DNA of 62,413 nucleotides from Bacteroidales bacterium. GTDB lineage: Bacteria > Bacteroidota > Bacteroidia > Bacteroidales > JAUNSR01. The position numbers were made by a program, and so were the translations under genes. Numbering within the stretch: position 1 is the first letter of the stretch; every line of letters begins with the position of its first letter. The DNA lies in contig JAVVPN010000006.1 in the NCBI GenBank assembly GCA_036655755.1, positions 1-62,413 of the forward strand, written 5' to 3'. Positions 16,013 to 62,413 of the stretch are shown one piece after another. The notes beneath the pieces were generated by a model. It was not told the DNA's origin and did no database searches. It saw only the letters and a program-made list of their open reading frames with translations.

Positions 16013-17929
16013 TTATTCTATGGTATCCGTCAGATCATATACTTTTCCTTGTGTTTCGATATGCTGATATAGTTTTTTATAAAAATGGTGATGCATCAAT
16101 GTGGCTGCATCACCCAGAATGATCAATTTCATACGGGCACGGGTAATGGCTACATTCATGCGACGCAAATCATTCAGGAATCCGATTTTACCCTCTTCAT
16201 TCCCTCTTACCATACTGATAAGAATCACGTCGCGCTCTTGCCCCTGAAAGCCATCAACTGTATTTACAGTGATCTGTTTTCGGAAACGACGAAAAAAAGG
16301 AGCGTGCTTGATCAATGAGCGCAAGTAATATACCTGCGATTTATATGGGGAAATAATTCCGAAATCAATACGCTCCTCCAGAATACGCTCTACTCCTGTA
16401 CGCTCCATATATTCGCGCAACAATTGAATCAACAGCTCTGCTTCTTTCTTATTTAACCGGCTCAACGAGTGCGAAGACTCCTCTTCCTTAAAATTCAAGG
16501 CCTCCGTATTATACCATACCATTGGATAATCGAGCGAAAGTATGGTGCGCTTCCCGATTTCAGGAGATGCCGACAACGCTCCGGCATAAAACCAATCGGA
16601 CGAAAATTGCATAATCGATTCGTGCATTCGATACTGCATCGTAAGTAAAGAAACGACTTCGGGCTTTAGCGTGGCTATGCGTTGCATCAAGGTTGTAGAT
16701 AACCCTTTCTTCGCCGCTTCGAAACATTTTACGGTTGGCGGTAACTGACAATGGTCGCCTGCCAGAATCACCCGGTCTGCTTTCTGTATGGCAATCCAAC
16801 AGGCAGCTTCGAGTGCCTGCGCTGCTTCATCTATGAATAATGTTGGAAAATGACGGTGGCTCAGTATCTTATTCGACGCTCCGACCAATGTAGAAGCAAC
16901 TACCCGGGTTTCAGAAAATATAGCATTTTCAATGCGTATTTCCAGTTCGGTAGCTCGGCTCCGTAATTTGTAAAGCCGGTTTCGCAACGACTCGTTTCGT
17001 TCGCTGCCTTTTCTTAACTGGCTCTGCCCCTCCCGGATTGCTTTTCGTATGCTCCATAATTCCGGATAATCCGGATGCGATTCGAAACGCCTTTCATAGG
17101 TCGATGAAAGCATTTTTTCATTTACACGCATCGGGTTGCCTATGCGCAATACATTAATACCTCGCTCCATCAGCTTTTCGGCAATCCAATCTACCGCCGC
17201 ATTACTTTGAGCACACACCAAGACCTGCGCTTCGCGATGCAGCGTTTCATAAACAGCTTCTACCAACGTGGTTGTTTTACCAGTACCCGGAGGGCCATGC
17301 ACTATTGCTACTTCGCGAGTCGTCAATACCTTTCCTACCGCAGCTTCCTGACTGCGGTTTAACCATGGAAGCCGTACCGGAAATTCATTCCGAAAACCGG
17401 GTTTGATAGAGCCTACCAATGTATCCCGTAAATAGGCGAGCCTGTTGCTTTTAGCTCCCATCACGGTATTGAGTGCGGCAAACATTGCCTGATAAGAAGT
17501 TTCATCAAAATAAAGCTGTACTCCCGGATCTGCTGCGCCTTGTATTTGCTGTAAGGCGGCTACTGAAGGTAATGATATGAGCATCTTGTTGGCATCCACG
17601 AAATGCACTTGCCCTACAAAATTGAAGTAACGAGGCTGGCCCCCCATATCACATTGAAAGAAACATACAGGTCGACCCGGCTCGAGTTCATGTTCGAATT
17701 CGGGATCACCTTGCCGCTCCACCTCAATCAATAACTGATTGAGCGAATTATGGAAAGACTTACCGATAGAAAGAGGATACCAGCATTTACCCTGGCGAAC
17801 ACGTTTTTCTATCCCGTCTAACTTCGTTTGTTTTAAATAGGTTTCTTTTTCAAATTCATATTCCATACGAAGTAAATCCACTTGCAACTGTAAATTCACA
17901 TTCGCAGGTTGTTGGGAGCTCTGCGTCAT
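16013..17929 (-). CDS. Superfamily 1 helicase, Upf1/IGHMBP2-like (AAA_11/AAA_12)
   Basis: HGPPGTGKTTT, CAQSNAAVD, IDEAAQ, GDHCQLPP, QYRM, ISPY, TVDGFQGQE and RRMNVAITRAR. Confidence 0.93.
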   Translation of the reverse strand: MTQSSQQPANVNLQLQVDLLRMEYEFEKETYLKQTKLDGIEKRVRQGKCWYPLSIGKSFHNSLNQLLIEVERQGDPEFEHELEPGRPVCFFQCDMGGQPRYFNFVGQVHFVDANKMLISLPSVAALQQIQGAADPGVQLYFDETSYQAMFAALNTVMGAKSNRLAYLRDTLVGSIKPGFRNEFPVRLPWLNRSQEAAVGKVLTTREVAIVHGPPGTGKTTTLVEAVYETLHREAQVLVCAQSNAAVDWIAEKLMERGINVLRIGNPMRVNEKMLSSTYERRFESHPDYPELWSIRKAIREGQSQLRKGSERNESLRNRLYKLRSRATELEIRIENAIFSETRVVASTLVGASNKILSHRHFPTLFIDEAAQALEAACWIAIQKADRVILAGDHCQLPPTVKCFEAAKKGLSTTLMQRIATLKPEVVSLLTMQYRMHESIMQFSSDWFYAGALSASPEIGKRTILSLDYPMVWYNTEALNFKEEESSHSLSRLNKKEAELLIQLLREYMERTGVERILEERIDFGIISPYKSQVYYLRSLIKHAPFFRRFRKQITVNTVDGFQGQERDVILISMVRGNEEGKIGFLNDLRRMNVAITRARMKLIILGDAATLMHHHFYKKLYQHIETQGKVYDLTDTIE

Positions 17930-49442: not shown

Positions 49443-50531
49443 ATGAAAATAGGCATTCCTAAAGAGATTAAAAACAATGAAAACCGCGTATCTCTTACTC
49501 CTGCGGGAACACGCGCACTTACCGGTAAAGGACACATTGTTTATGTACAACATTTGGCAGGTAGTAACAGTGGATTTGCTGACGAGGAGTATATAAAAGC
49601 GGGAGCTCAGATCCTACCGGATATTGAGTCAGTTTATGCTATTGCCGACATGATTGTTAAAGTGAAAGAACCGATTGAGGCTGAATATAAACTGATCCGT
49701 CCGCATCAGCTAATCTTTACTTATTTTCATTTTGCATCCAGCAAAACATTGACAGATGCAATGGTAGCAAGTAAAGCAGTTTGTGTTGCTTATGAAACCG
49801 TAGAAAAAGATGATCATAGCTTACCTTTGTTGATACCTATGTCTGAGGTAGCCGGCCGAATGTCCGTACAAGAAGGAGCATTCTTTTTAGAGAAACCCCA
49901 TGGAGGAAAAGGTATATTACTTGGAGGCGTGCCCGGAGTAAAACCGGCGAAAGTATTGATTATCGGCGGTGGTGTGGTTGGTTATAATGCAGCAATCATT
50001 GCATCCGGAATGGGTGCAGATGTTATTATCTGCGATACATCCTTATCACGGTTGCGCCATTTGAGTGAAATACTTCCTAAAAATGTAGCTACCATGATGT
50101 CTTCCGAATATAATATTGCGGCAGAATTACCATATACAGATTTGGTTATCGGAGCAGTACTCATACCGGGAGCAAAAGCCCCTCACTTAATTACGCGCGA
50201 TATGCTCAAGCTTCTTCGCAAAGGTTCGGTGCTGGTAGATGTAGCGATCGATCAGGGTGGTTGCTTTGAAACTTCTCATCCGACTTCACATGATAATCCG
50301 GTATATGAAGTAGAGGATGTAGTGCATTATTGCGTAGCCAATATACCGGGAGCAGTGCCATTTACTTCAACTTTAGCACTTACAAATGCAACATTGCCTT
50401 ATGTTATCGAATTAGCAGAATTAGGCTGGGAAGAAGCTTGTAAAAGAAATCCTGAATTAATGCGCGGTTTAAATATCGTTGAAGGTGAAATCGTTTATAA
50501 GGGGGTAAAAGAAGCCTTCCAAACAGAATAA
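49443..50531 (+). CDS. ald: Alanine dehydrogenase
   Basis: IGIPKEIKNNENRV, VKVKEP, PMSEVAGR, IGGGVVG, DVAIDQGGC and HYCVANIPG. Confidence 0.96.
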   Translation: MKIGIPKEIKNNENRVSLTPAGTRALTGKGHIVYVQHLAGSNSGFADEEYIKAGAQILPDIESVYAIADMIVKVKEPIEAEYKLIRPHQLIFTYFHFASSKTLTDAMVASKAVCVAYETVEKDDHSLPLLIPMSEVAGRMSVQEGAFFLEKPHGGKGILLGGVPGVKPAKVLIIGGGVVGYNAAIIASGMGADVIICDTSLSRLRHLSEILPKNVATMMSSEYNIAAELPYTDLVIGAVLIPGAKAPHLITRDMLKLLRKGSVLVDVAIDQGGCFETSHPTSHDNPVYEVEDVVHYCVANIPGAVPFTSTLALTNATLPYVIELAELGWEEACKRNPELMRGLNIVEGEIVYKGVKEAFQTE

Positions 50532-50571
50532 TTTAACAGAGCCAGCTCTTATTTTTTTAATAATACAGACT

Positions 50572-50614
50572 CCGCGTTATTCCGATGAAATCATCTGCGA
50601 ATAACGCGGTTTTT
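50572..50614 (+). terminator. Terminator of ald
   Basis: CCGCGTTATTC / GAATAACGCGG followed by a T run. Confidence 0.8.
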
Positions 50615-50674
50615 ATATGCAGATCGAAAGGAATCGCTTATTTTTGTGAGTTCATTAAAAAAAAGAAAGATTCT

Positions 50675-51844
50675 ATGTTTTTTATAATATCTGTTATTGC
50701 CCTCATTTTACTTTCATTAGCCGGGAATTCCGTTTTTTACCTGAGCGCTAGCAAGCAACTGCGTAAAAATCGAATTTTCAGAACTATATGGGGAATCGAA
50801 ACCATTGGAGTAGCCCTTCTGCCCGTTATTTTGGTTTCACTTACCTTCTATACCGGATTATCTACCGATTCTCGAATCTTTATGTGGGGGGTGTTTCTCA
50901 CCCTTCTTTTTATCGTTCCTTTGATTTGTTTCATGATATATGCCCTCGTTGCGGTATTTCCGTTTAATCAGCGCATACGACGAGTCACCGCCGGCATAGG
51001 ATGGCTAATGATGGGAATTATTGCTTCTGCCATACTCTACGGAGGTATTGTAGGACGAAAAAAGATCGTTGTCGAAAAAGAAGTTATTTATACTTCACGA
51101 CTACCCGAATCATTCGACAAATTAAAAATCGTACAGATATCGGATCTGCATTTAGGAAGTATCCGCCATAATCCTGAATATATTCAGGCGATTGTTGATT
51201 CGGTCAATAACCAACATCCTGATTTAATTTTCTTTACAGGAGATTTAGTAAATAGCAAGGCAAGTGAGGCAGAACCTTTTCGTTCATTATTACATTCGCT
51301 AAAAGCCAAAGAGGGTGTTTACTCGGTATTAGGAAATCATGATTATGCATATTATCACCGCTGGAACTCCGAAGAGGAGCGACTTAATAATGTAGCGCAA
51401 TTAATCGCACTCGAAAAAAAGGCAGGCTGGGATCTTTTAAATAATGAACATCGAATATTATCACGAAATGACGATAGTATTGTTATTGCGGGGGTAGAGA
51501 ATTGGGGTGAAAAACGGTTCGGGCAGCAAGGAGATTTAAGCAAAGCTTTAACGAACATATCCGACTCCAGTTTTATCTTGCTATTGTCTCATAACCCAGT
51601 ACATTGGCGTAAAGAGGTGTTGCCTGAGACAAATGTAGATGTTACTTTTTCGGGACATACTCATGCCATGCAAATGCAGATAGGCAACTTCTCTCCCTCT
51701 GAATGGTTATATAAGGAATGGAGCGGTTTGTATCAAGAAAACAATCAATATCTATATGTAAACCGGGGAACCGGCTTCGTTATATTTCCGGCACGCATCG
51801 GTGCATATCCGGAAATTTCTTTCATTGAATTAAGACATAAATAA
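50675..51844 (+). CDS. Membrane-anchored calcineurin-like metallophosphoesterase (YkuE/YaeI-like)
   Basis: Four N-terminal TM helices; SDLH, TGDLVN, GNHD, LSHNP and SGHTH. Start MFFII at 50675, after TATTTTTG (50639-50646). Confidence 0.9.
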   Translation: MFFIISVIALILLSLAGNSVFYLSASKQLRKNRIFRTIWGIETIGVALLPVILVSLTFYTGLSTDSRIFMWGVFLTLLFIVPLICFMIYALVAVFPFNQRIRRVTAGIGWLMMGIIASAILYGGIVGRKKIVVEKEVIYTSRLPESFDKLKIVQISDLHLGSIRHNPEYIQAIVDSVNNQHPDLIFFTGDLVNSKASEAEPFRSLLHSLKAKEGVYSVLGNHDYAYYHRWNSEEERLNNVAQLIALEKKAGWDLLNNEHRILSRNDDSIVIAGVENWGEKRFGQQGDLSKALTNISDSSFILLLSHNPVHWRKEVLPETNVDVTFSGHTHAMQMQIGNFSPSEWLYKEWSGLYQENNQYLYVNRGTGFVIFPARIGAYPEISFIELRHK

Positions 51845-51846
51845 GT

Positions 51847-53973
51847 ATGAGCACAAATTTCAACACACTCATCTCAAAAACACTCAACATCAGCGAAAAG
51901 CAGATAGCCAATACGATCAAGTTATTGGATGAAGGGGCTACCATCCCTTTTATCAGTCGTTATCGAAAAGAAATGACCGGTGCGCTGGATGAAGTGCAAA
52001 TTGCAGCGATTAATGACACGCTCAATAAGTTGAAGGAGATTGAAAAACGAAAAAATACAATACTCTCAACCATTGAAGAACAAGGGAAACTGACGACGGA
52101 ATTAAAATCGCGTATAGAAACTACCTGGGATGCTACCGTTCTTGAAGATATCTATTTGCCATTTAAACCTAAACGTCGCACACGTGCCGAAATGGCCCGC
52201 GAAAAGGGTCTTGAGCCCCTTGCTACTTTTTTGATGTTTCAACAGGGGGCAGATCCGTTGCAGAAAGCAAATACATTTGTAAAAGATGGAATAAAAGATG
52301 CGGACGAAGCGTTGAAGGGTGCCCGTGACATTATTGCAGAGTGGGTAAATGAAGATGAAAAGTCGCGTAATAATATCCGTAATGTTTTCGCGCGCGAAGC
52401 TACAATCTCTTCTAAAGTAGTAAAAGGCAAAGAGGAAGAAGGTAGTAAATACCGTGATTATTTTGATTGGTCTGAACCACTGAAACGCTGTTCTTCTCAC
52501 CGAATGCTGGCGCTGCGCCGGGGTGAAAATGAGGGAATATTAAAAGTATCTATAGAGCCGGAAGATGAACATTGTATTGAAAGACTTGAACATCAATATG
52601 TAAAAGGTAATAATGCAGCATCGCAACAGGTTGCGGAAGCAGTTAAAGATGCTTATAAACGATTGCTTAAACCCTCTATTGAAACTGAATTTTCTCAATT
52701 ATCAAAAGAGAAGGCGGATGAAGAAGCTATTCGTGTGTTTGTAACCAATCTGCGTCAACTGCTGTTAGCCGCTCCGTTAGGACAAAAACGAGTGCTTGCA
52801 ATTGATCCGGGATACCGTACGGGATGCAAAGTTGTTTGTCTGGACGCACAAGGAAATTTGCTGCACAATGAAACAATTTATCCGCATGCGCCCCAAAATC
52901 AAACTTCTTTAGCGGCAAAAAAACTGTCGTCATTAGTTGAGCAGTATCAGATTGAAGCTATTTCAATCGGAAACGGAACGGCAAGCCGTGAAACAGAAGC
53001 ATTCGTAACCTCACTTCGATATGATCGGAAGTTACAGGTTTTCGTAGTAAGTGAGGACGGAGCGTCGATTTATTCGGCATCAAAAATCGCCCGCGAAGAA
53101 TTTCCGGAATATGACGTAACAGTGCGAGGTGCTATCTCTATTGGACGCCGGCTAATGGACCCCTTGGCAGAATTGGTAAAAATTGATCCGAAATCGATCG
53201 GTGTAGGTCAATACCAATACGATGTAAATCAAGCGCAATTAAAAAAATCGCTGGATCAGACAGTTGAGAACTGCGTTAATCAGGTGGGTGTAAATGTTAA
53301 TACAGCAAGTAAGCATTTGCTAACCTATATTTCTGGATTGGGCCCCCTATTAGCTCAGAATATTGTGAATTATCGGGCCGAAAACGGACCATTTAAAACT
53401 CGACGCGAACTATTAAAGGTACCTCGTATGGGTGAAAAAGCGTTCGAACAAGCAGCAGGGTTTCTTCGTATTCCGGGTGCATCTAATCCGCTTGATAATT
53501 CGGCTGTTCATCCCGAAAGTTATAAGATAGTAGAACAAATGGCAAAAGACCTGAATTGTTCGGTAAGTGAGTTGATTCGGGATAAAGAATTAAGATCAAA
53601 AATCAAGATAGAGCGTTATATAACAGATACGATTGGGTTGCCGACGCTACAAGATATTTTGAAAGAGCTCGAAAAACCGGGATTAGATCCTCGAGAACAG
53701 ATTAAAGTATTTGAATTCGATCCGAACGTACGTACGATTAATGATTTACGGGAAGGTCAGGTTTTACCGGGTATTGTTACCAATATTACCAATTTCGGTT
53801 GTTTTGTTGATGTCGGAATTAAAGAAAACGGATTGGTTCACATTTCTCAACTTGCCGATCGGTTCATTTCTGACCCAACGGAAATTGTTTCTATACATCA
53901 ACATGTAAACGTAAAAGTGCTTTCGGTTGATTTCGAACGAAAACGCGTACAGCTTACAATGAAAGAATTATAA
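51847..53973 (+). CDS. tex: Tex family RNA-binding protein (YhgF)
   Basis: GATIPFISRYRKE, IDPGYRTGCK, GNGTASRE, DPKSIGVGQYQ, HhH and a C-terminal S1 domain. Confidence 0.95.
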   Translation: MSTNFNTLISKTLNISEKQIANTIKLLDEGATIPFISRYRKEMTGALDEVQIAAINDTLNKLKEIEKRKNTILSTIEEQGKLTTELKSRIETTWDATVLEDIYLPFKPKRRTRAEMAREKGLEPLATFLMFQQGADPLQKANTFVKDGIKDADEALKGARDIIAEWVNEDEKSRNNIRNVFAREATISSKVVKGKEEEGSKYRDYFDWSEPLKRCSSHRMLALRRGENEGILKVSIEPEDEHCIERLEHQYVKGNNAASQQVAEAVKDAYKRLLKPSIETEFSQLSKEKADEEAIRVFVTNLRQLLLAAPLGQKRVLAIDPGYRTGCKVVCLDAQGNLLHNETIYPHAPQNQTSLAAKKLSSLVEQYQIEAISIGNGTASRETEAFVTSLRYDRKLQVFVVSEDGASIYSASKIAREEFPEYDVTVRGAISIGRRLMDPLAELVKIDPKSIGVGQYQYDVNQAQLKKSLDQTVENCVNQVGVNVNTASKHLLTYISGLGPLLAQNIVNYRAENGPFKTRRELLKVPRMGEKAFEQAAGFLRIPGASNPLDNSAVHPESYKIVEQMAKDLNCSVSELIRDKELRSKIKIERYITDTIGLPTLQDILKELEKPGLDPREQIKVFEFDPNVRTINDLREGQVLPGIVTNITNFGCFVDVGIKENGLVHISQLADRFISDPTEIVSIHQHVNVKVLSVDFERKRVQLTMKEL

Positions 53974-54073
53974 ATGCAATCGCCATAACTCGCCTAAGGC
54001 TGAGATATTCAACAGAAAATATATAAATGGCGCATTTTTATTTTAATATAAAAATAAGCAATACATAAATGAA
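53972..54073 (+). repeat. Dispersed leader element, copy 1 (full length)
   Basis: 69/83 ungapped identity to 59329-59411; ends at the folK-like start codon. Confidence 0.85.
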
Positions 54074-54446
54074 TCAGATTTTAATCAGTCTTGGCAGTAA
54101 TATGCCTTGTGGCAAAGGGAATATGGAATCTGCAATTAAGAAAATACGGGCAAAAGCGACTTTTGCCCGATTTTCTTCAATATATGACACCGATCCCATA
54201 GGGAAGCATAAACATGCCCGATATAAAAATTGTGTTGGCCAGATTCACTCTACCGAACCATTTGAATACTGGCACTCTTTTTTCAAGTCGCTTGAAATTG
54301 AAATGGGACGAAATGAATTGTTACGCGCCCAGGGGGATGTTCCTTTAGATATTGATATCGTAATCTGGAATGAAGATGTTATAAGGCCTCGGGATCTTAT
54401 GGCAGACTACCTGAAAGAAGGGCTACAAGAAATAGCTACACAATAA
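54069..54446 (+). CDS. folK: Short FolK/HPPK-like protein
   Basis: ISLGSN, SSIYDTDP, YKN, KSLE..MGR and LDIDI; lacks the usual C-terminal PHP segment. Confidence 0.75.
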   Translation: MNQILISLGSNMPCGKGNMESAIKKIRAKATFARFSSIYDTDPIGKHKHARYKNCVGQIHSTEPFEYWHSFFKSLEIEMGRNELLRAQGDVPLDIDIVIWNEDVIRPRDLMADYLKEGLQEIATQ

Positions 54447-54520
54447 TTGTAGGATTTTTACTATCCCGAATAGCAAATGTTGTAAGAGCTTAGCATCGAA
54501 TAACAGAACTGAAACGGCTT

Positions 54521-54545
54521 GAACAAGCATCCTAAGCTTATTGTT
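54521..54545 (+). promoter_or_regulatory. Putative ECF-type promoter GAAC-N17-TGTT
   Basis: GAACaagcatcctaagcttatTGTT, 30 nt before ATG 54576. Confidence 0.55.
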
Positions 54546-54575
54546 CTAATATTAAATGATTTAATGCAAATTATT

Positions 54576-55286
54576 ATGAAAGCGATATTAGAAAAAGCCA
54601 CACAACGAGGTCACTCCCATATTGACTGGATGGATGCATATTACTCTTTCAGCTATGGCGAATATAATAATCCGAATCGAATGAAGTTTGGAGCCTTACG
54701 ATTTTTGAATGACTTTACCATTGCTATAGACAAAAGTATCCGGATTAAAAATGCGCAGAATATTATTCTGGTTACCTTACCTTTAAAAGGGTCATTACAT
54801 CATTCCGATTCATATGGCCATGAAGATATGGTGCGTTGGGGACAAGCTCAGATTATGAATACAGGCACCGGAACTGTAACTAGTGAATATACAAATAAAA
54901 GTGAGCATCATTTGGTTGAATTCATACAGATCGGAATCATACCCAAAAAAATGGATACCGCCCCTGCTCATGAAATAATTGATTTTTCAGGAAGTCTGAA
55001 AGAACATTCATTTGTTACAATTATTGCGCCGCATGGCCCGGCGGCCGGCAAAATCGATCAGCAGGCCAGCATATCATTAGGCGAATTTCACCATGGCGAC
55101 TCCGTAGAATATAAATGTCACACTCCAGGCAACGGAGTTTTCGTTTTGTTATTGGGTGGGAGTATGGAATTATCGGGCTATCAAATGGATACAAAAGACA
55201 GTATCGAAATTACCGATTTTGATAAACTTGAATTCTCATTTAGCAAGAATAGCACTGTGCTCTTAATAGAAGTACCAATGCAATAA
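54576..55286 (+). CDS. Pirin-family (YhhW/YhaK-like) bicupin lacking metal ligands
   Basis: RGH...W...YSFS...YNNPNRMKFGALRFLND, PLKG.L.H.DS.G, QIMNTGTG and LLIEVPM; start MKAIL at 54576. Confidence 0.85.
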   Translation: MKAILEKATQRGHSHIDWMDAYYSFSYGEYNNPNRMKFGALRFLNDFTIAIDKSIRIKNAQNIILVTLPLKGSLHHSDSYGHEDMVRWGQAQIMNTGTGTVTSEYTNKSEHHLVEFIQIGIIPKKMDTAPAHEIIDFSGSLKEHSFVTIIAPHGPAAGKIDQQASISLGEFHHGDSVEYKCHTPGNGVFVLLLGGSMELSGYQMDTKDSIEITDFDKLEFSFSKNSTVLLIEVPMQ

Positions 55287-55301
55287 AACTAAATTACAAA
55301 T

Positions 55302-55348
55302 GTAAATCCTGAACAAGAGTGGTTATTTCACTCTTATTCAGGATTTAC
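55302..55348. terminator. Bidirectional terminator
   Basis: GTAAATCCTGAA.AAGAGTG / CACTCTT.TTCAGGATTTAC. Confidence 0.85.
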
Positions 55349-55371
55349 TTATTCACACAATTTTATCTGCG

Positions 55372-55845
55372 TTACTTCTTCAATAATACTTCATTGATTG
55401 CTTTCTTAAAGTCGGCTTTCGACATTGCCCCTTGCGCCATTTGTGGCTGCTCATTCATCGGAATGAATAATAAGGAAGGGATACTACGTATTCCAAAAGC
55501 GGCAGCTAAATCCTGTTCCTTCTCAGTATCGATTTTGTAGATATAGATTTCGCCATCATATTCAGCAGCTAATTCTTCCAAAATAGGTGAAATCATTTTA
55601 CAAGGGCCACACCATGACGCATAAAAATCAACAATTGCAGGTTTATCTCCCAGATATTTCCATTCATTGGGATTGGCTTCATAGTTTGCTACTTTTTTTA
55701 AGAACTCGTCTTTGGTTAAATGGATTGTCTTCATTTTATTCTCCTTTTCAATTTTATTTGATGCCTGATTATCGGATGTCTTTGCATTGCATGCGGTAAA
55801 TCCGAATGCGCCCAATATGGCCAGACTGATAAGAGTCTTCTTCAT
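55372..55845 (-). CDS. trxA: Thioredoxin with lipoprotein signal
   Basis: Lipobox FTAC; DFYASWCGPC and IRSIP. Confidence 0.9.
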   Translation of the reverse strand: MKKTLISLAILGAFGFTACNAKTSDNQASNKIEKENKMKTIHLTKDEFLKKVANYEANPNEWKYLGDKPAIVDFYASWCGPCKMISPILEELAAEYDGEIYIYKIDTEKEQDLAAAFGIRSIPSLLFIPMNEQPQMAQGAMSKADFKKAINEVLLKK

Positions 55846-55967
55846 TTGTATATAATTTCAAATTAATTTACTTTCCGACGGAAACTTTATACAAACATAA
55901 AAAGCTTTTATCACTAAAACAAGTTTCCTCAGGAAAATATTTTACATCTCTATTTATTTATCAATAT

Positions 55968-56720
55968 TCAACGTATAAAAACATACTCTGAATTAGATGA
56001 ATGTTCGGGTGAATACAAATAACCATCCCCTGTAAATTCTTTCACAGATTCAGTATCTATAATTTTCCGGTCAATAATATAACGTGCCATTAAGCCCCTC
56101 GCCTTCTTTACGGCCGGAGATACCGACCTTAATGAGCCATTGCGAAACTCCTTAAACGAAAGGGTGAGTATCTTACAATTTGCAAAACAAGTTGGATCAA
56201 TCAATTTAAAATACTCTTCAGAAGCCAAATTAAAAATCAATTCATTTTCATTTTCGTCCGCCAAAAACTTATTTACCGCTGGTTGCCAGTAGTCATATAA
56301 ATTCTTATATCCTTCTGGCTTCATCCGATTTCCAACATCCAACCGATATGGCTGAATCAGATCTCCCGCCCGTAAAATGCCATATAATCCTGAAAAAATA
56401 CGCAAATGCTTTTGTGCAAAAATAAGCGACTCATCATCTAATGTTAAGGCATTTAATGCAGTATATGCAGTACCTACATAAGCATAGATGGCAGGTATTT
56501 CTGCCGAAAAAGAGGTTCCGAATTGCTGATACATCTGAAAAGCCTGATGCAAAGTTGTACCTGAGGCTCCTAATATTTTACCTAACTCAGTTAAAGATAA
56601 CTCCTTGAGTAATTGGGCAAGTTGAGTTGTTTTTGTCAGTAATGCCGGTTGAGTAGCCGAAAATGCAGAAACCGGATTTGCTACCCGCATCTTTTTTGCA
56701 GGAGATAATAGTATTTTCAT
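55968..56720 (-). CDS. yaaA: Peroxide stress protein YaaA (canonical copy)
   Basis: LLSPAK, FSGLYGILR..DLIQPYRL, NLASEEY and KKARGLMARY. TATCTTTG box at 56776-56783. Confidence 0.92.
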   Translation of the reverse strand: MKILLSPAKKMRVANPVSAFSATQPALLTKTTQLAQLLKELSLTELGKILGASGTTLHQAFQMYQQFGTSFSAEIPAIYAYVGTAYTALNALTLDDESLIFAQKHLRIFSGLYGILRAGDLIQPYRLDVGNRMKPEGYKNLYDYWQPAVNKFLADENENELIFNLASEEYFKLIDPTCFANCKILTLSFKEFRNGSLRSVSPAVKKARGLMARYIIDRKIIDTESVKEFTGDGYLYSPEHSSNSEYVFIR

Positions 56721-56771
56721 TTATATATAATTTTATTTTTAACATTAAAGTATAAATGCGCCATTTATATA
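56714..56771 (-). repeat. Dispersed leader element, copy 2 (3' half only)
   Basis: 36/38 identity to 59377-59414; similarity continues to TATATATAAATGAAAA at the yaaA start. Confidence 0.85.
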
Positions 56772-56798
56772 TCTCCAAAGATAGCGAAACCAATAAAA

Positions 56799-56835
56799 AA
56801 ATCCCGAAACAATCATAAAGACTACTTCGGGATTT
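56799..56835 (-). terminator. Terminator between the two yaaA paralogs
   Basis: AAATCCCGAA / TTCGGGATTT with a T run on the minus strand. Confidence 0.75.
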
Positions 56836-56853
56836 CATCAGCAATTTAACTTA

Positions 56854-57630
56854 TTATTCATCCGCTGTTGTACGGGTATAAACCCATTCGTTATTATCAG
56901 ATACGTCTGTATTCAATTTGTATCCTTTCCATGACCATGATTTCAGATCGTCCAGCTTATCTACCTTGTTTTTAACAATATAATTTACCAATTCTGCTTT
57001 TGCCGACTCTGCATATTGAGGTAATTCTTTCCACTCTTCATCACGCCAGTCTTTAAATGTAACAGATGCAACCTTATATTTTTCAGTTAAGGCTTTTACT
57101 TCTATCGCCTTTAAAGTTTTATCGATACCAAGGTAAAGGACTTCGCCACCGGCATCTTTTGCATCTTTCATCAGTTGCTGAGTGAGCAGGTCTTTCCAAT
57201 AATCCAATACATCATCGGCACCCAAATCCCGCAAGCGCAGATTAAATACCAAGCGATAAGCCTTAATAACATCGAGCGGCCGCAATACTCCATAAAGCGC
57301 ACTGAGGATGCGGACATGCTGCTGAGCATAATGCAAATCTGTCGGAGTAAGTTTTTGAGGGGCCATCGTTTTATAGAGCTCATCATTAAAGGCGAATAAC
57401 GCGGGTTTAGGAGCTACCGACAAATCATCAAACTTCTGAAACTCTTCATAAATATGAGTTGCTTCGCCCTCACTGATCTGCATCTTCTCAGAAATTTCAT
57501 GTACCGACAAATTTCGCATCAAGGCAGCCAGAAATTCTGCTTCCATCTGAAAAATCGGAAGTGATGTATCTTCTTGCTGGCTAGCCACTGCCATATTCAT
57601 CTCTTTTGCCTGGGGAATAATCACTAACAT
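56854..57630 (-). CDS. Divergent, acidic YaaA-family paralog
   Basis: IIPQAK and ILSALYGVLRPLDVIKAYRL retained; NLAS.EY and KKARG motifs lost. Confidence 0.85.
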   Translation of the reverse strand: MLVIIPQAKEMNMAVASQQEDTSLPIFQMEAEFLAALMRNLSVHEISEKMQISEGEATHIYEEFQKFDDLSVAPKPALFAFNDELYKTMAPQKLTPTDLHYAQQHVRILSALYGVLRPLDVIKAYRLVFNLRLRDLGADDVLDYWKDLLTQQLMKDAKDAGGEVLYLGIDKTLKAIEVKALTEKYKVASVTFKDWRDEEWKELPQYAESAKAELVNYIVKNKVDKLDDLKSWSWKGYKLNTDVSDNNEWVYTRTTADE

Positions 57631-57658
57631 AGCCGTATTGTTTAAATTAAAATAAAAA

Positions 57659-57734
57659 TACCACGAACCTTAAGGGTTACAGATGTTTATAACCTATTGT
57701 ATAAACAAACTCTATATCCTGAAGGTTCGTGGTA
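57659..57734 (-). terminator. Long hairpin: rlmD terminator containing an ECF-type promoter
   Basis: Perfect 13-bp outer IR TACCACGAACCTT / AAGGTTCGTGGTA and inner 8-bp IR TGTTTATA / TATAAACA, with a T-rich tail on minus. GAAC-N17-TGTT at 57728-57704. Confidence 0.7.
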
Positions 57735-57762
57735 ATTAGTGGCTATATATCGTTGCCTCGTA

Positions 57763-59172
57763 TTATTTTAACTCAAGCAACACAACATTTTCTACATGAT
57801 GAGTATGTGGGAACATATCTACTGCCTGAACTTTCTTTACACGGTATTTTACATCCAACAAAGCTAAGTCGCGGGCCTGCGTAGCCGGGTTACAGCTTAC
57901 ATACACAATACGTTTCGGCTCAGCAAACAAAATAGCATTTACTACATCCTCATGCATTCCCGCACGTGGTGGGTCTGTGATAATTACATCCGGACGGCCA
58001 TGCTCATTGATAAAATCAAGCGTCAGGATATCTTTCATATCGCCGGCATAGAAAAGCGTATTATCAATTCCGTTGATCTGCGAATTGACTTTTGCATCTT
58101 CAATCGCCTCCGGCACATATTCGATACCTACCACTTTCGAAGCTTTCGAAGCAACGAAATTAGCAATCGTACCGGTACCTGTATACAAATCATATACCAA
58201 TTCGTTTCCTGTAAGACCCGCAAAATCGCGTGTTACAGAATATAGGATATAGGCCTGTTCCGAATTTGTCTGATAGAATGATTTCGGACCAATCTTAAAC
58301 TTAAGGCCTTCCATCTGTTCGAAAATATGGTCATTTCCTTTGAATACCAAAATATCCTGATCGGTAATCGTATCGTTACACTTCGAGTTGATTACATACA
58401 TCAGCGAAGTAATCTGCGGGAACATATCCGCGATATGCTGCAACAAGGCCTCGCGGGCAGCCTTATCTTCGTAATAAAATGCAACGATTAACATCAGTTC
58501 GCCCGTTGTCGAGGTACGCACAATCATATTACGCAAAAATCCTTCCTGATTACGCAAATCAAAGAAAGTATAGTCGTGCTCTAAAGCAAATGCACGGATT
58601 GCCAAACGAATCTGGTTCGAGATATCATCTTGCAACCAGCATTTATTAATATCCAATACTTTGTCGAAAGCTCCCGGAATGTGGAATCCTAAAGCATTCA
58701 TATGATCATATTCTACATTTTCACGTACTTCCTCGTGCGTCAGCCAACGTTTGTTTGAGAATGTAAACTCCAGTTTATTTCGGTAAAAACGAGTTTTCTC
58801 TGATCCTAGAATCGGCATGAATTCCGGAAGTTCAACCTTTCCGATACGACTCAGGTTATCAAATACCTGCTGCTGTTTAAATTTCAATTGCTCCTCATAC
58901 GGAAGGTGTTGCCATTTACAACCCCCACAAACCGTAAAATGCTCGCAAAACGGTTCTGTACGAAGTGGCGACAACTTATGAATTTTCATTACACGTCCCT
59001 CTGCAAATGAACGTTTCTGTCGATAGATCTGTAAATCAACAATATCTCCCGGCGCTACAAAAGGAACGAAGATCACCTTATCTTTCCAACGCGTAATCGC
59101 TTTTCCTTCGGCGGCTACATCCAATATCTCAATTTGCTCCACTATCGGAAGCTCTTTCTTTTTCCGTGCCAA
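57763..59172 (-). CDS. rlmD: 23S rRNA m5U1939 methyltransferase
   Basis: TRAM domain, CEHFTVCGGC, SFYQTN, DLYTGTG, DPPRAG, YVSCNPAT and DMFPHTHHVE. Likely TTG start (MARKKK) at 59172, after TAACTTTG (59213-59206). Confidence 0.94.
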   Translation of the reverse strand: MARKKKELPIVEQIEILDVAAEGKAITRWKDKVIFVPFVAPGDIVDLQIYRQKRSFAEGRVMKIHKLSPLRTEPFCEHFTVCGGCKWQHLPYEEQLKFKQQQVFDNLSRIGKVELPEFMPILGSEKTRFYRNKLEFTFSNKRWLTHEEVRENVEYDHMNALGFHIPGAFDKVLDINKCWLQDDISNQIRLAIRAFALEHDYTFFDLRNQEGFLRNMIVRTSTTGELMLIVAFYYEDKAAREALLQHIADMFPQITSLMYVINSKCNDTITDQDILVFKGNDHIFEQMEGLKFKIGPKSFYQTNSEQAYILYSVTRDFAGLTGNELVYDLYTGTGTIANFVASKASKVVGIEYVPEAIEDAKVNSQINGIDNTLFYAGDMKDILTLDFINEHGRPDVIITDPPRAGMHEDVVNAILFAEPKRIVYVSCNPATQARDLALLDVKYRVKKVQAVDMFPHTHHVENVVLLELK

Positions 59173-59328
59173 TGCTTGTTCAGTTTTAATAAGTACAAAA
59201 TCGCTCAAAGTTAAAAATTTTCTTCCGAATGAGTTGGCCATTTTCTAAAAAACAACCCGCTCTTATATTTTATTCAAATTCAACTTGCATAGGTTATCCA
59301 TTCTCCTATATTTGCGTATATGTCTTAA

Positions 59329-59433
59329 AAATGAAATCGCCATAACCCGCCTAAAGTTGAGATACCCAACATACGGTATATAAAGGGCGCATTTATACTT
59401 TAATGTAAAAAATAGATTATATATAAATGAAAA
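59329..59433 (+). repeat. Dispersed leader element, copy 3 (full length), in the ppdK 5' UTR
   Basis: Begins 15 nt after TATATTTG (59307-59314); homologous to copies 1 and 2. Confidence 0.85.
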
Positions 59434-59478
59434 ACTTACAACAATCTGCATCTAGTATTTACCATTGAAAATCTGTTT

Positions 59479-62199
59479 ATGAAAACCAAAAAAGTGTACA
59501 ACTTCGGCGATGGCCATGCCGAAGGAAGAGCGGACATGAAAAATTTATTGGGAGGCAAAGGGGCCAATCTTGCCGAAATGAACCTTATCGGCGTACCTGT
59601 CCCTCCCGGTTTTACGATTACGACAGAAGTTTGTACCGAATATAATCAACTTGGACAAGAGGCTATTATGTCATCCATTAAAGAAGAGGTTGAAAACGGT
59701 ATCAAACACATCGAATCAATTACAGGTACCATATTCGGCGATAAAAAGAACCCGTTGCTGGTTTCGGTTCGATCAGGTGCCCGCGTTTCCATGCCAGGTA
59801 TGATGGATACGGTTTTAAATCTGGGGATAAATGATGAAGCGGTCGAAGCGCTTACTATTAAGTCGGGAAATGCCCGTTTTGCCTGGGACTCGTATCGCCG
59901 TTTTATCCAAATGTATGGCGATGTAGTATTAGGAATGAAGCCTAAAAACAAGACTGATATTGATCCTTTCGAAGAGATTATCGAAACACTCAAAAAAGAA
60001 AAAGGGATAAAACTAGACAACGAACTTACCGTAGAAGATCTTAAATTACTGGTGCCTCGTTTTAAGGCAGCCGTAAAAGAGGTTACCGGAAGAGATTTCC
60101 CCGTAAATCCATGGGATCAGCTCTGGGGCGCCGTATGTGCCGTATTCGATAGCTGGATGAATGAACGCGCTATTTATTACCGCCGCATGAATCATATCCC
60201 CGAAGAATGGGGTACTGCAGTCAATGTGCAAGCAATGGTATTTGGCAACATGGGCGATTCCTCGGCAACAGGAGTAGCGTTTACGCGTGACGCAGCTACA
60301 GGCGAAGACATATTTAATGGCGAATACCTTATCAATGCGCAAGGCGAAGACGTTGTAGCAGGAATTCGTACTCCTCAACAAATTACAATCGAAGGATCTC
60401 GCCGCTGGGCTACCCTGCAAGGTATTTCGGAAGAGGATCGCAGGGCAAAATATCCATCTCTAGAAGAGACAATGCCTGAATGCGCACAAGATTTGATTCG
60501 TACGCAACAAAAACTTGAAGACTACTTCAAAGACATGCAAGACCTTGAGTTTACCATTCAGGAAGGTAAATTATGGTTATTGCAAACCCGCAACGGAAAG
60601 CGTACAGGAGAAGCAATGGTTAAAATCGCCATGGATTTTATGCGCAAAGGCGTGATCGATGAAAAAACGACCCTAAAACGGATGGAGCCGCAAAAACTCG
60701 ACGAATTGCTGCATCCTGTCTTCGATAAAAAAGCAATTAAAGCAGCAAAAGTAATTGCCAAAGGATTACCGGCCTCACCGGGTGCCGCTACTGGCCGGAT
60801 TGTATTTTTTGCAGACGATGCTGAAAAATGGGCTGACGACCAACAGAAAGTGATTCTTGTACGCATCGAAACTTCGCCCGAAGACCTCCGTGGCATGCAT
60901 GTGGCGCAAGGTATCCTGACTGCCCGTGGAGGAATGACCTCCCATGCGGCTGTAGTTGCCCGTGGCATGGGTAAATGTTGTGTTTCAGGTGCGGGTGAGA
61001 TCAAAATCGATTATAAGGCGAAAACAATCAAAATGGGCGATGACATTTACCATGAAGGAGATTGGATCTCGTTAAATGGTTCAACCGGAGAAGTCTATGA
61101 AGGAAAAGTGGGTACCATGGATCCAGAAATCAGTGGCGACTTTAAACTCTTGATGGATTTCTGCGAAAAATATACCCGCATGGATGTGCGTACCAATGCA
61201 GATACACCTCGCGACGCAGCCGTAGCACGTAAATTCGGAGCAAAAGGTATCGGCTTGTGTCGTACCGAACATATGTTTTTTGAGGGTGATCGTATTAAAG
61301 CGATGCGTGAAATGATTTTGTCAAAAACAGAACGTGGCCGACGCGAAGCGCTCAATAAACTATTGCCAATGCAACGCAGCGACTTTGCCGGCATCTTTGA
61401 AGCGATGGACGGTTATGGTGTAACGATCCGTTTACTCGATCCCCCTTTGCATGAATTTGTTCCTCATCAGTTAGCTACTCAAAAAGAGTTAGCTCAAGAA
61501 ATGGGCTTGTCGATCGAAGAGGTAAAAATGGCTTGCGACTCGCTCGAAGAGTTCAATCCGATGCTCGGACACCGTGGTTGCCGCCTAGGATGCACTTATC
61601 CCGAAATTACAGAAATGCAGGCCCGGGCTATCATTGAAGCGGCTCTCGAAACAAAAGCAAAAGGGTGCATTGTTAAACCGGAAATCATGGTTCCACTGGT
61701 AGGTGTAATTGAAGAATTGAAGCTACAAGCGTCCATTATTCATGAAACTGCCGAAAAAGTATTTAAAGAAAAAGGCGAACGCATCGACTATAAAGTGGGT
61801 ACAATGATTGAAGTGCCTCGTGCAGCCCTAACTGCCGATAAAATTGCAGAAGTAGCTGATTTCTTCTCATTCGGAACAAACGACCTCACTCAAATGACCT
61901 TTGGTTATTCGCGCGATGACGCCGGTAAATTCCTTAAAATTTATCATGAAAAAGGAATTCTCAAAACCGATCCGTTTGCAGCGCTCGATCAGGAAGGTGT
62001 AGGATGCCTTGTACGCTACGGGGTTGAAAAAGGACGTTCTACCAAACCGGGATTGAAAATCGGTATCTGCGGTGAACATGGAGGTGAACCCTCGTCGGTT
62101 GAATTCTGTAATCGCGTAGGTATGAATTACGTGAGTTGCTCTCCTTATAGAGTACCTATCGCGCGTGTGGCGGCGGCTCAAGCTGCGGTAGAGAATTAA
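59479..62199 (+). CDS. ppdK: Pyruvate, phosphate dikinase
   Basis: LLGGKGANLAEM, SVRSGA..SMPGMMDT, GGMTSHAAVVARG (phospho-His), GLCRTEHMF, FGTNDLTQ and GICGEHGG. Confidence 0.98.
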   Translation: MKTKKVYNFGDGHAEGRADMKNLLGGKGANLAEMNLIGVPVPPGFTITTEVCTEYNQLGQEAIMSSIKEEVENGIKHIESITGTIFGDKKNPLLVSVRSGARVSMPGMMDTVLNLGINDEAVEALTIKSGNARFAWDSYRRFIQMYGDVVLGMKPKNKTDIDPFEEIIETLKKEKGIKLDNELTVEDLKLLVPRFKAAVKEVTGRDFPVNPWDQLWGAVCAVFDSWMNERAIYYRRMNHIPEEWGTAVNVQAMVFGNMGDSSATGVAFTRDAATGEDIFNGEYLINAQGEDVVAGIRTPQQITIEGSRRWATLQGISEEDRRAKYPSLEETMPECAQDLIRTQQKLEDYFKDMQDLEFTIQEGKLWLLQTRNGKRTGEAMVKIAMDFMRKGVIDEKTTLKRMEPQKLDELLHPVFDKKAIKAAKVIAKGLPASPGAATGRIVFFADDAEKWADDQQKVILVRIETSPEDLRGMHVAQGILTARGGMTSHAAVVARGMGKCCVSGAGEIKIDYKAKTIKMGDDIYHEGDWISLNGSTGEVYEGKVGTMDPEISGDFKLLMDFCEKYTRMDVRTNADTPRDAAVARKFGAKGIGLCRTEHMFFEGDRIKAMREMILSKTERGRREALNKLLPMQRSDFAGIFEAMDGYGVTIRLLDPPLHEFVPHQLATQKELAQEMGLSIEEVKMACDSLEEFNPMLGHRGCRLGCTYPEITEMQARAIIEAALETKAKGCIVKPEIMVPLVGVIEELKLQASIIHETAEKVFKEKGERIDYKVGTMIEVPRAALTADKIAEVADFFSFGTNDLTQMTFGYSRDDAGKFLKIYHEKGILKTDPFAALDQEGVGCLVRYGVEKGRSTKPGLKIGICGEHGGEPSSVEFCNRVGMNYVSCSPYRVPIARVAAAQAAVEN

Positions 62200-62226
62200 A
62201 AGAATTATTAAAATAGAGCTTCTACA

Positions 62227-62281
62227 AGAACCGGCTGCAATCTGATTTTTAAAAGAATCAGTTGCAGTCGGTTCTCATTTC
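62227..62281 (+). terminator. Terminator hairpin after ppdK
   Basis: AGAACCGGCTGCAA.CTGATT / AATCAG.TTGCAGTCGGTTCT. Confidence 0.8.
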
Positions 62282-62413
62282 AGTCAAACAGCTTACTCAG
62301 CTTTATTCACAAAAAACTTGGCATTGTAAATTACAGACTCACAATACGCAACAAACTCATTTATATTTTCAATCAAGATTGCTTTCAATGCAATTAATTT
62401 GTATCTTTCATCA

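Follow-up and report, generated by a model that had tools for sequence, protein, structure and literature searches.

Along the 62,413-nt stretch of DNA analysed here (the window; contig JAVVPN010000006.1 of a Bacteroidales bacterium, assembly GCA_036655755.1), three genes, a folK-like gene, yaaA and ppdK, are preceded in sense orientation by leaders of about 100 bp that resemble each other, and the question is what such leaders have in common and why they stand where they do. The initial annotation had offered two explanations, a cis-regulatory cassette (repressor operator or leader RNA) shared by the three genes, or a small dispersed element that donates translation starts. The comparison of genomes reported here favours the second. 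The three leaders are very probably members of a genus-restricted, non-autonomous dispersed repeat that has been inserted in a fixed orientation exactly at ATGA(A/G) start codons.

The likeness of the three leaders was recomputed and stands as first described. Positions 53972-54054 and 59329-59411 align gap-free with 69/83 identities, and the minus-strand segment 56771-56734, read as reverse complement, matches 59377-59414 at 36/38 positions. The 8-3-8 palindrome at their core is perfect at 56751-56769 and has a single change at both 54022-54040 and 59379-59397. The three copies all terminate in ATAAATGAA, with the ATG at 54069 (folK-like, HPPK), at 56720 on the minus strand (yaaA) and at 59427 (upstream of ppdK). 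TAnnTTTG, which we take to be the Bacteroidetes -7 promoter box by the consensus from the Bacteroides literature, was found again at 59307 (+) and 56783 (-), and the names given to the neighbouring genes agree with Pfam. The likeness is far beyond chance. The window's own genome (G000, 3.18 Mb) holds 108 blastn matches with the ppdK copy as query and 98 copies recognized by an nhmmer profile built from 47 flanked copies (cut-off E<=0.01), so that a family of about 98 members takes the place of the three-gene cassette. Among these, 50 are full, 32 have retained the 3' part only, 11 the 5' part only, and 5 are internal pieces. The true copy number is probably above 98, because several contigs end inside copies and a run of N interrupts one array. 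This run lies inside a tandem array of the repeat on contig C8 (45763-46092), where the assembly was limited by the repeat.

The element is AT-rich and about 96-101 bases long, with limits set from the flank alignment of the 47 copies. Its left end is ATGAAATCGCC and its right end TATA(T/C)AAATGA(A). It is made up of two modules, each ending in TATATAAATG; the 5' module extends from the left ATG to the left palindrome arm, and the 3' module comprises the right arm, an A-rich tail and the terminal ATG. Copies reduced to the 5' part end precisely with the internal TATATAAATG, where they are fused to a gene, end points that fit the expectation for a deletion between the two TATATAAATG direct repeats. 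From the left ATG the sequence reads ATG-AAA-TCG-CCA-stop, the stop being TAA or TAG and kept across five species; the product is MQSP-stop in copy 1 and MKSP-stop in most copies. An in-frame TAA immediately precedes the terminal ATG, and the consensus has stop codons in all three sense frames, the frame of both ATGs ending after 4 codons. Terminal inverted repeats are absent, as had been stated, the left end and the reverse complement of the right end being dissimilar in the 47-copy flank alignment and in a five-species alignment. Tandem arrays, in which 2-3 units follow one another every 94-97 bases, occur in G000 and in four sister species, G002, G005, G006 and G008. The idea that the palindrome represents two abutted inverted ends of a permuted unit was rejected, as single copies have their unique flanks at ATGAAAT and AAATGAA and not at the palindrome. 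Two variants of the unit were also seen. On contig C33 of G000 (16627-16670), the first ~16 nt of the repeat and their own reverse complement form a perfect hairpin, an inverted left-end duplication whose next downstream open reading frame (ORF) is antisense. A subfamily of G008 (L265, L266, L267) has ~9 nt extra in the A-rich tail, giving units of ~109 nt.

The position of the copies relative to genes was determined from a crude ORF gene set (2399 genes), which also supplied the null counts, these being approximate for that reason. Of the 98 copies in G000, 88 precede the next ORF in sense orientation and 4 are antisense to it; for the other 6 the contig offers no neighbour. The initial annotation had held that many copies in random orientation or in 3' regions would speak for a plain repeat; the copies are indeed many, but with 88 sense against 4 antisense their orientation is non-random. 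Many lie 2-26 nt behind a preceding co-oriented gene, inside operons. Seventy-nine copies have kept the right end, and in 60 of them an ORF of at least 60 codons begins at the terminal ATG (at least 100 codons in 58); the others run into the next tandem copy (6), meet a contig end (1), have no ATG (1) or open short ORFs of 4-33 codons (11, including the ppdK copy). Pfam domains begin near residue 1 in 20/22 tested downstream ORFs, and the terminal ATG is therefore taken as the true start of the downstream genes. The 60 element-supplied starts are ATGA(A/G) without exception (60/60), compared with 880/2399 (37 %) of the crude genes. Of the non-genic ATGA(A/G) sites in G000, 819 coincide with ORF starts, 450 precede a sense ORF by no more than 150 nt and 1230 lie elsewhere, and the element copies over the same three classes number ~60, 11 and 4. 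In the four other species (60 loci, 86 matches), 31 matches are at long ORFs, 21 stand before short ORFs, 27 are followed by the next copy, 6 lack the right end and 1 lacks the ATG; a long ORF thus follows 31/52 terminal copies. The genes downstream encode SmpB, ThiC, TrpRS, an Nfo-type endonuclease, an NrdG-type activase, rubrerythrin, SusD, MlaD, GH3, an ECF sigma factor and others. These functions are unrelated, so that a regulon of three genes is not the point.

Filled and empty sites have been read at six starts that carry the repeat in G000. The folK-like site is empty in G002, G006, G005 and G003; in G002 and G006 the Tex stop is followed by 2 nt and then ATGAAT, and in G005 and G003 the stop and start overlap as ATGA. 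The smpB site is empty in G002, G005, G008 and G001, the thiC site in G002, G005 and G001, the nrdG site in G002, G006 and G005, and the nfo site in G005, G001, G008 and G002. At trpS, the repeat is missing from G002, G005 and G008, and the promoter box upstream of it is conserved. At all six sites the sister species show unrelated sequence directly before the ATGA(A) start, and G000 has ~96 additional bases between the left ATGAAAT and the gene's own ATGA. The site of copy 3 in the ppdK leader is unoccupied in G002, G005, G008 and G007. The reverse comparison, of 53 foreign loci with G000, gave 13 comparable cases, 12 of them empty in G000 and 8 with clean start-codon junctions; in the best case, L284, both flanks align. 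Older insertions also exist. A copy stands upstream of a DUF4834 gene in both G000 and G002, which suggests from sequence vertical inheritance of older insertions, orthology being judged from 24/25 N-terminal residues only, and the chorismate synthase site is filled in G000 and G005. The occurrence of copies common to species beside species-specific copies indicates that the family was active before and after the species split. Copy 1 is also present in contigs of the sequencing runs X1, X3 and X4. Two further observations concern single sites. The same oxidoreductase-subunit gene is filled in G005 (L244) and G006 (L281) by different subfamilies and empty in G000, reflecting either recurrent insertion at one start codon or loss. 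The trpS leader of G000 (L028, contig C20) contains a hairpin-forming insert of ~33 nt without counterpart in G002; it lies between the repeat and the trpS promoter box, ~40-75 nt upstream of the left end of the repeat (L028 1605, minus strand), and may be another small palindromic element.

Taken at the level of sequence, these comparisons show that insertion is oriented and precise, at ATGA(A/G) starts, that it restores a start codon and leaves a mini-ORF at the former one, that the element grows in tandem and that old copies decay from the 5' side. The element that donates translation starts, as one of the two initial proposals had it, is thereby borne out by ~98 copies, by patchy filled and empty sites and by a terminal ATG that is the real start of most downstream genes. 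The reading frame of the gene stays intact upon insertion, because the element's end TATA(T/C)AAATGA puts an ATG where the gene's own ATG was. From the old start, now ~96 bases upstream, only 4 codons can be read before a stop. Head-to-tail arrays arise when a copy is itself hit again at its ATGAA, and old copies shed the 5' part and retain the start-proximal 3' part.

The three copies of the window illustrate these states. Copy 1 is full (53974..54073, +), extends from the left ATG to the terminal ATGAA and matches model positions 2-101 (nhmmer E 1.1e-18). The Tex-like gene upstream (51847-53973, +; Pfam Tex) has its TAA stop directly before the left ATG of the copy, and the HPPK/folK-like gene downstream (54069-54446, +; Pfam HPPK) starts at the terminal ATG. 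The dead-end mini-ORF, as read from the sequence, occupies 53974..53988 (+) with ATG, 3 codons and TAA at the former start position, and the palindrome with its one mismatch lies at 54022..54040 (+). Copy 2 (56716..56775, -) is one of the 32 copies reduced to the 3' part, with palindrome, A-rich tail and terminal ATG (model positions 43-101; nhmmer E 1.9e-9). Its ATG at 56720-56718 is the start of yaaA (55968-56720, -), in which the Pfam domain YaaA begins at residue 1, and a -7-type box, TATCTTTG (56776..56783, -), abuts it on the upstream side. Copy 3 (59331..59431, +; nhmmer E 7.2e-28) is full and forms part of the ppdK 5' leader. It begins 17 nt downstream of TATATTTG (59307..59314, +), the -7 box of the ppdK promoter, which is kept in the sister species; its terminal ATG (59427) leads into a 13-codon ORF only, and ppdK starts at 59479. 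Two other features of this part of the window were noted. The YaaA-family (PF03883) genes are in tandem on the minus strand (55968-56720 and 56854-57630), with a repeat remnant only at the start of the downstream one. Between the convergent pirin-like and thioredoxin genes, a long near-perfect hairpin (55293-55357) with weak microRNA-like Rfam matches (E >=0.41) is probably a two-way terminator.

The distribution of the repeat is narrow. It is present in 4/8 other species of the genus (G002, G005, G006 and G008), with several dozen matches each in G005 and G008, up to ~55 among the matches listed, and was not found in G001, G003, G004 and G007, two of which are 95 % complete. None of 32 genomes of other families contained it. 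A covariance model built from 103 copies of five species gave 2 positives among 151 genomes of the order, both from this genus, and none in the 149 genomes of other genera. Loci around orthologues of the methyltransferase in the neighbourhood, 80 from metagenomes and 80 from genomes, were likewise without the repeat; the relatives among them reach 76 % identity at most and include none at strain level. The search of the genome and its relatives that had been suggested at the outset thus returned ~98 copies, mostly sense-upstream, in a family that is genus-restricted and patchy in the sister species. A literature search, which did not cover supplementary files, found no description of the core sequence or of such repeats in Bacteroidales.

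Several observations weigh against an inserted repeat of this kind and are collected here. The enrichment at start codons could partly reflect survivorship and not targeting, and the gene set behind the null counts consists of crude ORFs. In G002, the closest species, the places that correspond to the ppdK leader (copy 3) and to copy C16 are without ATGAA. A gene of G005 that starts with ATGGAA in G000 has retained the element's ATGAAA as two additional codons. The word common to both junctions varies from 4 to 7 bases (ATGA to ATGAAAT) and is missing from the empty or sister site at three sites, so that it does not seem to behave as a fixed-length target duplication; apparently each end of the element has an ATGAA, one of which is fused with the target's own where such a word is present, perhaps through a recombination core or microhomology. 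Copies C107 and C16 lie 7-8 nt upstream of a -7 box and hence are not in a leader. Contigs of 4 metagenome DNA runs over 53000-60500 include the folK copy and break at copies 2 and 3; they had no joint skipping an element and gave no instance of presence and absence between strains. Plasmid and phage collections gave no match to the repeat. The Y1 HUH transposase (PF01797) and TnpB (PF07282) were found in 0/9 genomes of the genus, one of them 99 % complete and 4/9 only 71-77 % complete, with plasmids possibly missing from the assemblies. An IS110-type transposase and a reverse transcriptase occur in G005 only among the genus genomes, and the distributions of DDE_Tnp_1 and rve do not follow the element. 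The junction at C107 offers no readable empty site, since its upstream DNA is not alignable between species.

No mobilising enzyme was found, none of the families searched being distributed like the element, and the earlier remark that no transposase lies near the copies was confirmed. The PF01797 model itself gave matches in 6/14 control genomes. A parent insertion sequence with the same ends was sought among multi-copy sequences of >=300 bp in G000, and none was found except one tandem duplication. This duplication of 3.2 kb (contig C11, 3888-7062 and 7077-10252, 99.4 % identity) is the only long repeat in the self-comparison. Some members of the IS110 family insert into repeats. The IS110-type transposase gene of G005, apparently split into two ORFs (L232, that is G005 C2 216264-219698, at 1259-2708), stands directly after a full copy and a partial 5' module. 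It was considered as the parent element and rejected, as it adjoins a copy but has no part of the element on its far side.

The copies have a common predicted fold. RNA folds of full copies and folds of single-stranded DNA (ssDNA) of either strand show the same architecture, with ssDNA z-scores of -3.4 to -4.5. In the minimum free energy (MFE) folds of copy 3, helices H5, H1 and H2 are predicted to form a three-way junction (59338..59389, +), in which the outer helix H5 (59338-59343 with 59384-59389, +) encloses the hairpins H1 (59346-59361) and H2 (59362-59379). H5 consists of the CGCCAT/ATGGCG pairing to which the initial annotation had drawn attention as an alternative fold. In 103 copies, 94.8 %, 79.7 % and 91.1 % of cells are paired in H5, H1 and H2, respectively. 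Helix H4 (59390..59429, +) is predicted to pair the right palindrome arm (59390-59397) with the terminal TATAAATG (59422-59429), the ATG included, and 97.5 % of its cells are paired in the 103 copies of five species. Its compensatory pairs are at model positions 65/94 (GC 51, AU 40, GU 4, UA 1, other 6) and 63/96 (UA 97, CG 5). The covariation score of H4 is 0.084, compared with 0.057 for shuffles (0/500 as high) and <=0.038 for slid partners; these statistics are inflated because the copies are related by descent, and the compensations do not represent 103 independent events. The hairpin of the palindrome itself, H3 (59379..59397, + in copy 3), is incompatible with H2 and with H4, and it is not compensated, its score being reached by 42/500 shuffles. 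Covariation within the element is thus seen in H4 but not in the palindrome. Changes in H3 leave U-G or G-U pairs that are wobble-compatible on the sense strand only (UG 56, GU 23). H5 and H4 abut in the fold, which places the element's 5' tail next to its 3' end. The compensations separate subfamilies, which points to selection on propagating source copies. The fold may be needed for propagation, by bringing the ends together, or for workable translation of the host gene. None of the copies was matched by Rfam in a cmscan (E-value mode) of 50000-62413, and ARAGORN reported nothing at the copies.

Among the alternatives, a mobile translational switch survives best, although it is to be held only tentatively. 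With H5 formed, H4 would hide the AUG, and with H5 opened, H3 would free it; the trigger could be a ribosome on the 4-codon ORF, a ligand or temperature, and ~100 genes would come under one control. Such a switch is compatible with mobility. The consensus does contain the mutually exclusive chain of helices H5, H3 and H4, and the MFE fold has H5 and H4 with a paired AUG in 4/5 full copies. The pairing of H4 has been kept through two compensatory changes, the changes in H3 are tolerated as wobble pairs on the sense strand only, and the mini-ORF overlaps the 5' strand of H5. Structure in the start region also tunes initiation in Bacteroidetes, according to PMC6847099. The predicted effect of opening the fold is small, however. 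With nt 1-28 blocked, the predicted probability that the AUG is unpaired rises only from 0.22 to 0.38, with a rise of >0.1 in 39/103 copies and a fall in 5, and the model of a ribosome relay, in which the ribosome on the mini-ORF frees the start codon, was set aside for this weak thermodynamic effect. Moreover, the fold is not peculiar to RNA, ssDNA of either strand folding alike; the covariation lies between subfamilies, as selection on source copies would have it, and is inflated by descent; and neither an Rfam match nor a common function of the downstream genes was found. The leader RNA of the initial annotation may still be right; the predicted fold includes the CGCCAT/ATGGCG pairing that was proposed there.

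It is less probable still that the repeat is a plain MITE-like element (MITE, miniature inverted-repeat transposable element) that inserts at any ATGAA, with selection and deletion bias leaving mainly the copies at start codons, the one place where imprecise deletion of the insert is not possible. Such filtering could operate, as 15,401/17,900 ATGAR sites (R, A or G) are genic and insertion there would be disruptive. Decay does spare the start-proximal part, with 32 copies reduced to the 3' part compared with 11 reduced to the 5' part, and copies off the starts exist, 11 in G000 and 21/52 in the other species. The intergenic sites that remain argue otherwise: the 1230 sites elsewhere have received ~4 copies and the 819 start sites 60. 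Near-consensus copies are also mostly at starts (by eye, in the best-scoring rows), and filtering would have to account for an orientation of 88 sense to 4 antisense. As to how precise insertion at start codons might come about, homing by an undescribed mechanism is an unlikely but conceivable answer. The ends would be brought side by side by the stacked H5/H4, H4 co-evolving with the terminal start-codon segment, and integration at ATGA(A/G) starts would proceed without Y1 HUH, TnpB, IS110-type DEDD, DDE_Tnp_1, rve or reverse transcriptase enzymes, with a possible switch on ~100 genes in addition.

A non-autonomous relative of the IS200/IS605 insertion sequences, of the palindrome-associated kind, would move as ssDNA, insert 3' of ATGAA and end in ATGAA. 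The lack of inverted ends and of an apparent fixed duplication, the oriented insertion beside a short specific word, the predicted subterminal hairpins and the strong ssDNA fold are all in keeping with such an origin, and a right end that recreates the target would be expected to produce tandem arrays. It is nonetheless improbable, because PF01797 and PF07282 are missing from all nine genus genomes while the controls gave matches, the structures at the left and right are unlike, and some empty sites have no ATGAA.

The relation to promoters bears on whether the element brings its own. TAnnTTTG, the one promoter type searched for, is found inside 0/93 copies. Within 60 nt upstream it is found for 18/93 copies, where 0.028 are expected per 60 nt, that is ~7x the genome density, and the promoters of ppdK and trpS are conserved upstream of the insertion. 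Since there is no internal box, boxes lie upstream and many copies follow a preceding gene by 2-26 nt, the element is, judging from sequence, most likely transcribed from host promoters as a proximal 5' leader. A cassette like REP2 of Neisseria that brings its own promoter and start codon is accordingly disfavoured by the same counts and appears highly improbable, even though the upstream position, the lack of inverted ends and the internal stem-loops would suit it (as described in PMC3184786). Bacteroidales ribosomes ignore Shine-Dalgarno sequences. The tail of the element has A at -1, -2, -4, -6 and -13 and T or C at -3. In Bacteroidetes, A at -3 favours initiation and structure around the start tunes it, as stated in PMC6847099, so that the A/T-rich tail would fit Shine-Dalgarno-independent initiation only in part. 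The tail as an optimised initiation region was rejected, being only partly optimal with T or C at -3.

The least probable reading, also allowed by the initial annotation, is that of a regulon signal in which a dimeric DNA-binding regulator would recognize the palindrome as its operator. The 8-3-8 palindrome is perfect in copy 2 and lies between promoter and start codon, but a perfect Watson-Crick palindrome (8/8) is present in only 23/103 copies (0/26 in G005, 2/23 in G008), changes in the right arm have their compensating partners in the terminal segment, with none in the left arm, the genes have no function in common and many copies are inside operons, 2-26 nt after the preceding gene.

Start-codon-inserting repeats have been described mainly from mycobacteria, namely the mycobacterial interspersed repetitive units (MIRU), and ATG-donating repeats from Neisseria and Borrelia. 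By analogy, MIRU and Neisseria REP2 are the closest in kind to the dispersed repeat described here. MIRU are described as mobile units of 40-100 bp with tens of copies in sense orientation within operons, inserting at start codons with minimal harm (PMC12548453, PMC3184786). Species differ in whether a given MIRU site is filled or empty, the units have direct repeats of four nucleotides, and their ORFs overlap those of adjacent genes (Delihas 2011, PMC3184786). As far as these descriptions go, the present repeat resembles MIRU in its size, tens of copies, start-codon insertion, sense orientation, location in operons, filled and empty sites, tandem arrays and lack of a known partner transposase. 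MIRU are also flanked by a short direct repeat of ~4 bases, beside which the word of 4-7 bases common to both junctions here may be set. By the same descriptions, MIRU differ in having a unit-long ORF that overlaps the flanking start and stop (coupled at -4), whereas the present element has only a 4-codon ORF and an A/T-rich untranslated tail. MIRU are further GC-rich and belong to Actinobacteria, and the present element is AT-rich and belongs to Bacteroidales; the two were compared by these descriptions, not by sequence. Neisseria REP2 and Borrelia IR-A/IR-B, as described in PMC3184786, have no inverted ends, contain internal stem-loops, lie immediately upstream of genes and supply the ATG. 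The present element, set beside that account, likewise donates the ATG and part of the 5' leader, has at least two predicted stem-loops and has no terminal inverted repeats. REP2, so described, differs in possessing a promoter and ribosome-binding site, 23-26 copies and co-regulated genes, whereas the present element has the -7 box in 0/93, ~100 copies, unrelated genes and a precise insertion documented by empty sites. Relative to both MIRU and REP2, the covarying helix predicted over the start codon is an added feature.

More distant systems share single features. The classical MITEs (Correia, ERIC, RUP) are likewise small, non-coding, multi-copy and intergenic, are often co-transcribed and break short-read assemblies, but their terminal inverted repeats and insertion in either orientation have no counterpart here, and a fixed target duplication like theirs is not apparent. 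Palindrome-associated elements of IS200/IS605 and REP/REPIN with RAYT are similar in having no inverted ends, in their hairpins and in oriented insertion by a 4-5-base word, but no Y1 HUH gene is present in the 9 genus genomes and the hairpins at the two ends of the present element are unlike. The erm-type leader-peptide attenuators have a short upstream ORF and alternative helices, one of which hides the main start, and are single-locus and drug-responsive. Here the device, if working, would sit on a dispersed repeat, and the modelled thermodynamic switch is weak.

Overall, the leaders of the folK-like gene, yaaA and ppdK would represent the same start-codon-inserting lifestyle arising in Bacteroidales. 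The repeat breaks short-read assemblies, with several contigs ending in copies, and can mislead gene callers and searches for regulatory motifs. If the homing described above were true, it would imply integration by a system that the host encodes or that structure guides, or else a route at the RNA level. With its many filled and empty pairs, compensating subfamilies and both carrier and non-carrier species, the genus is a good system for finding the machinery that moves such repeats, and the family is suited to asking how genes tolerate 100 additional bases at their start.

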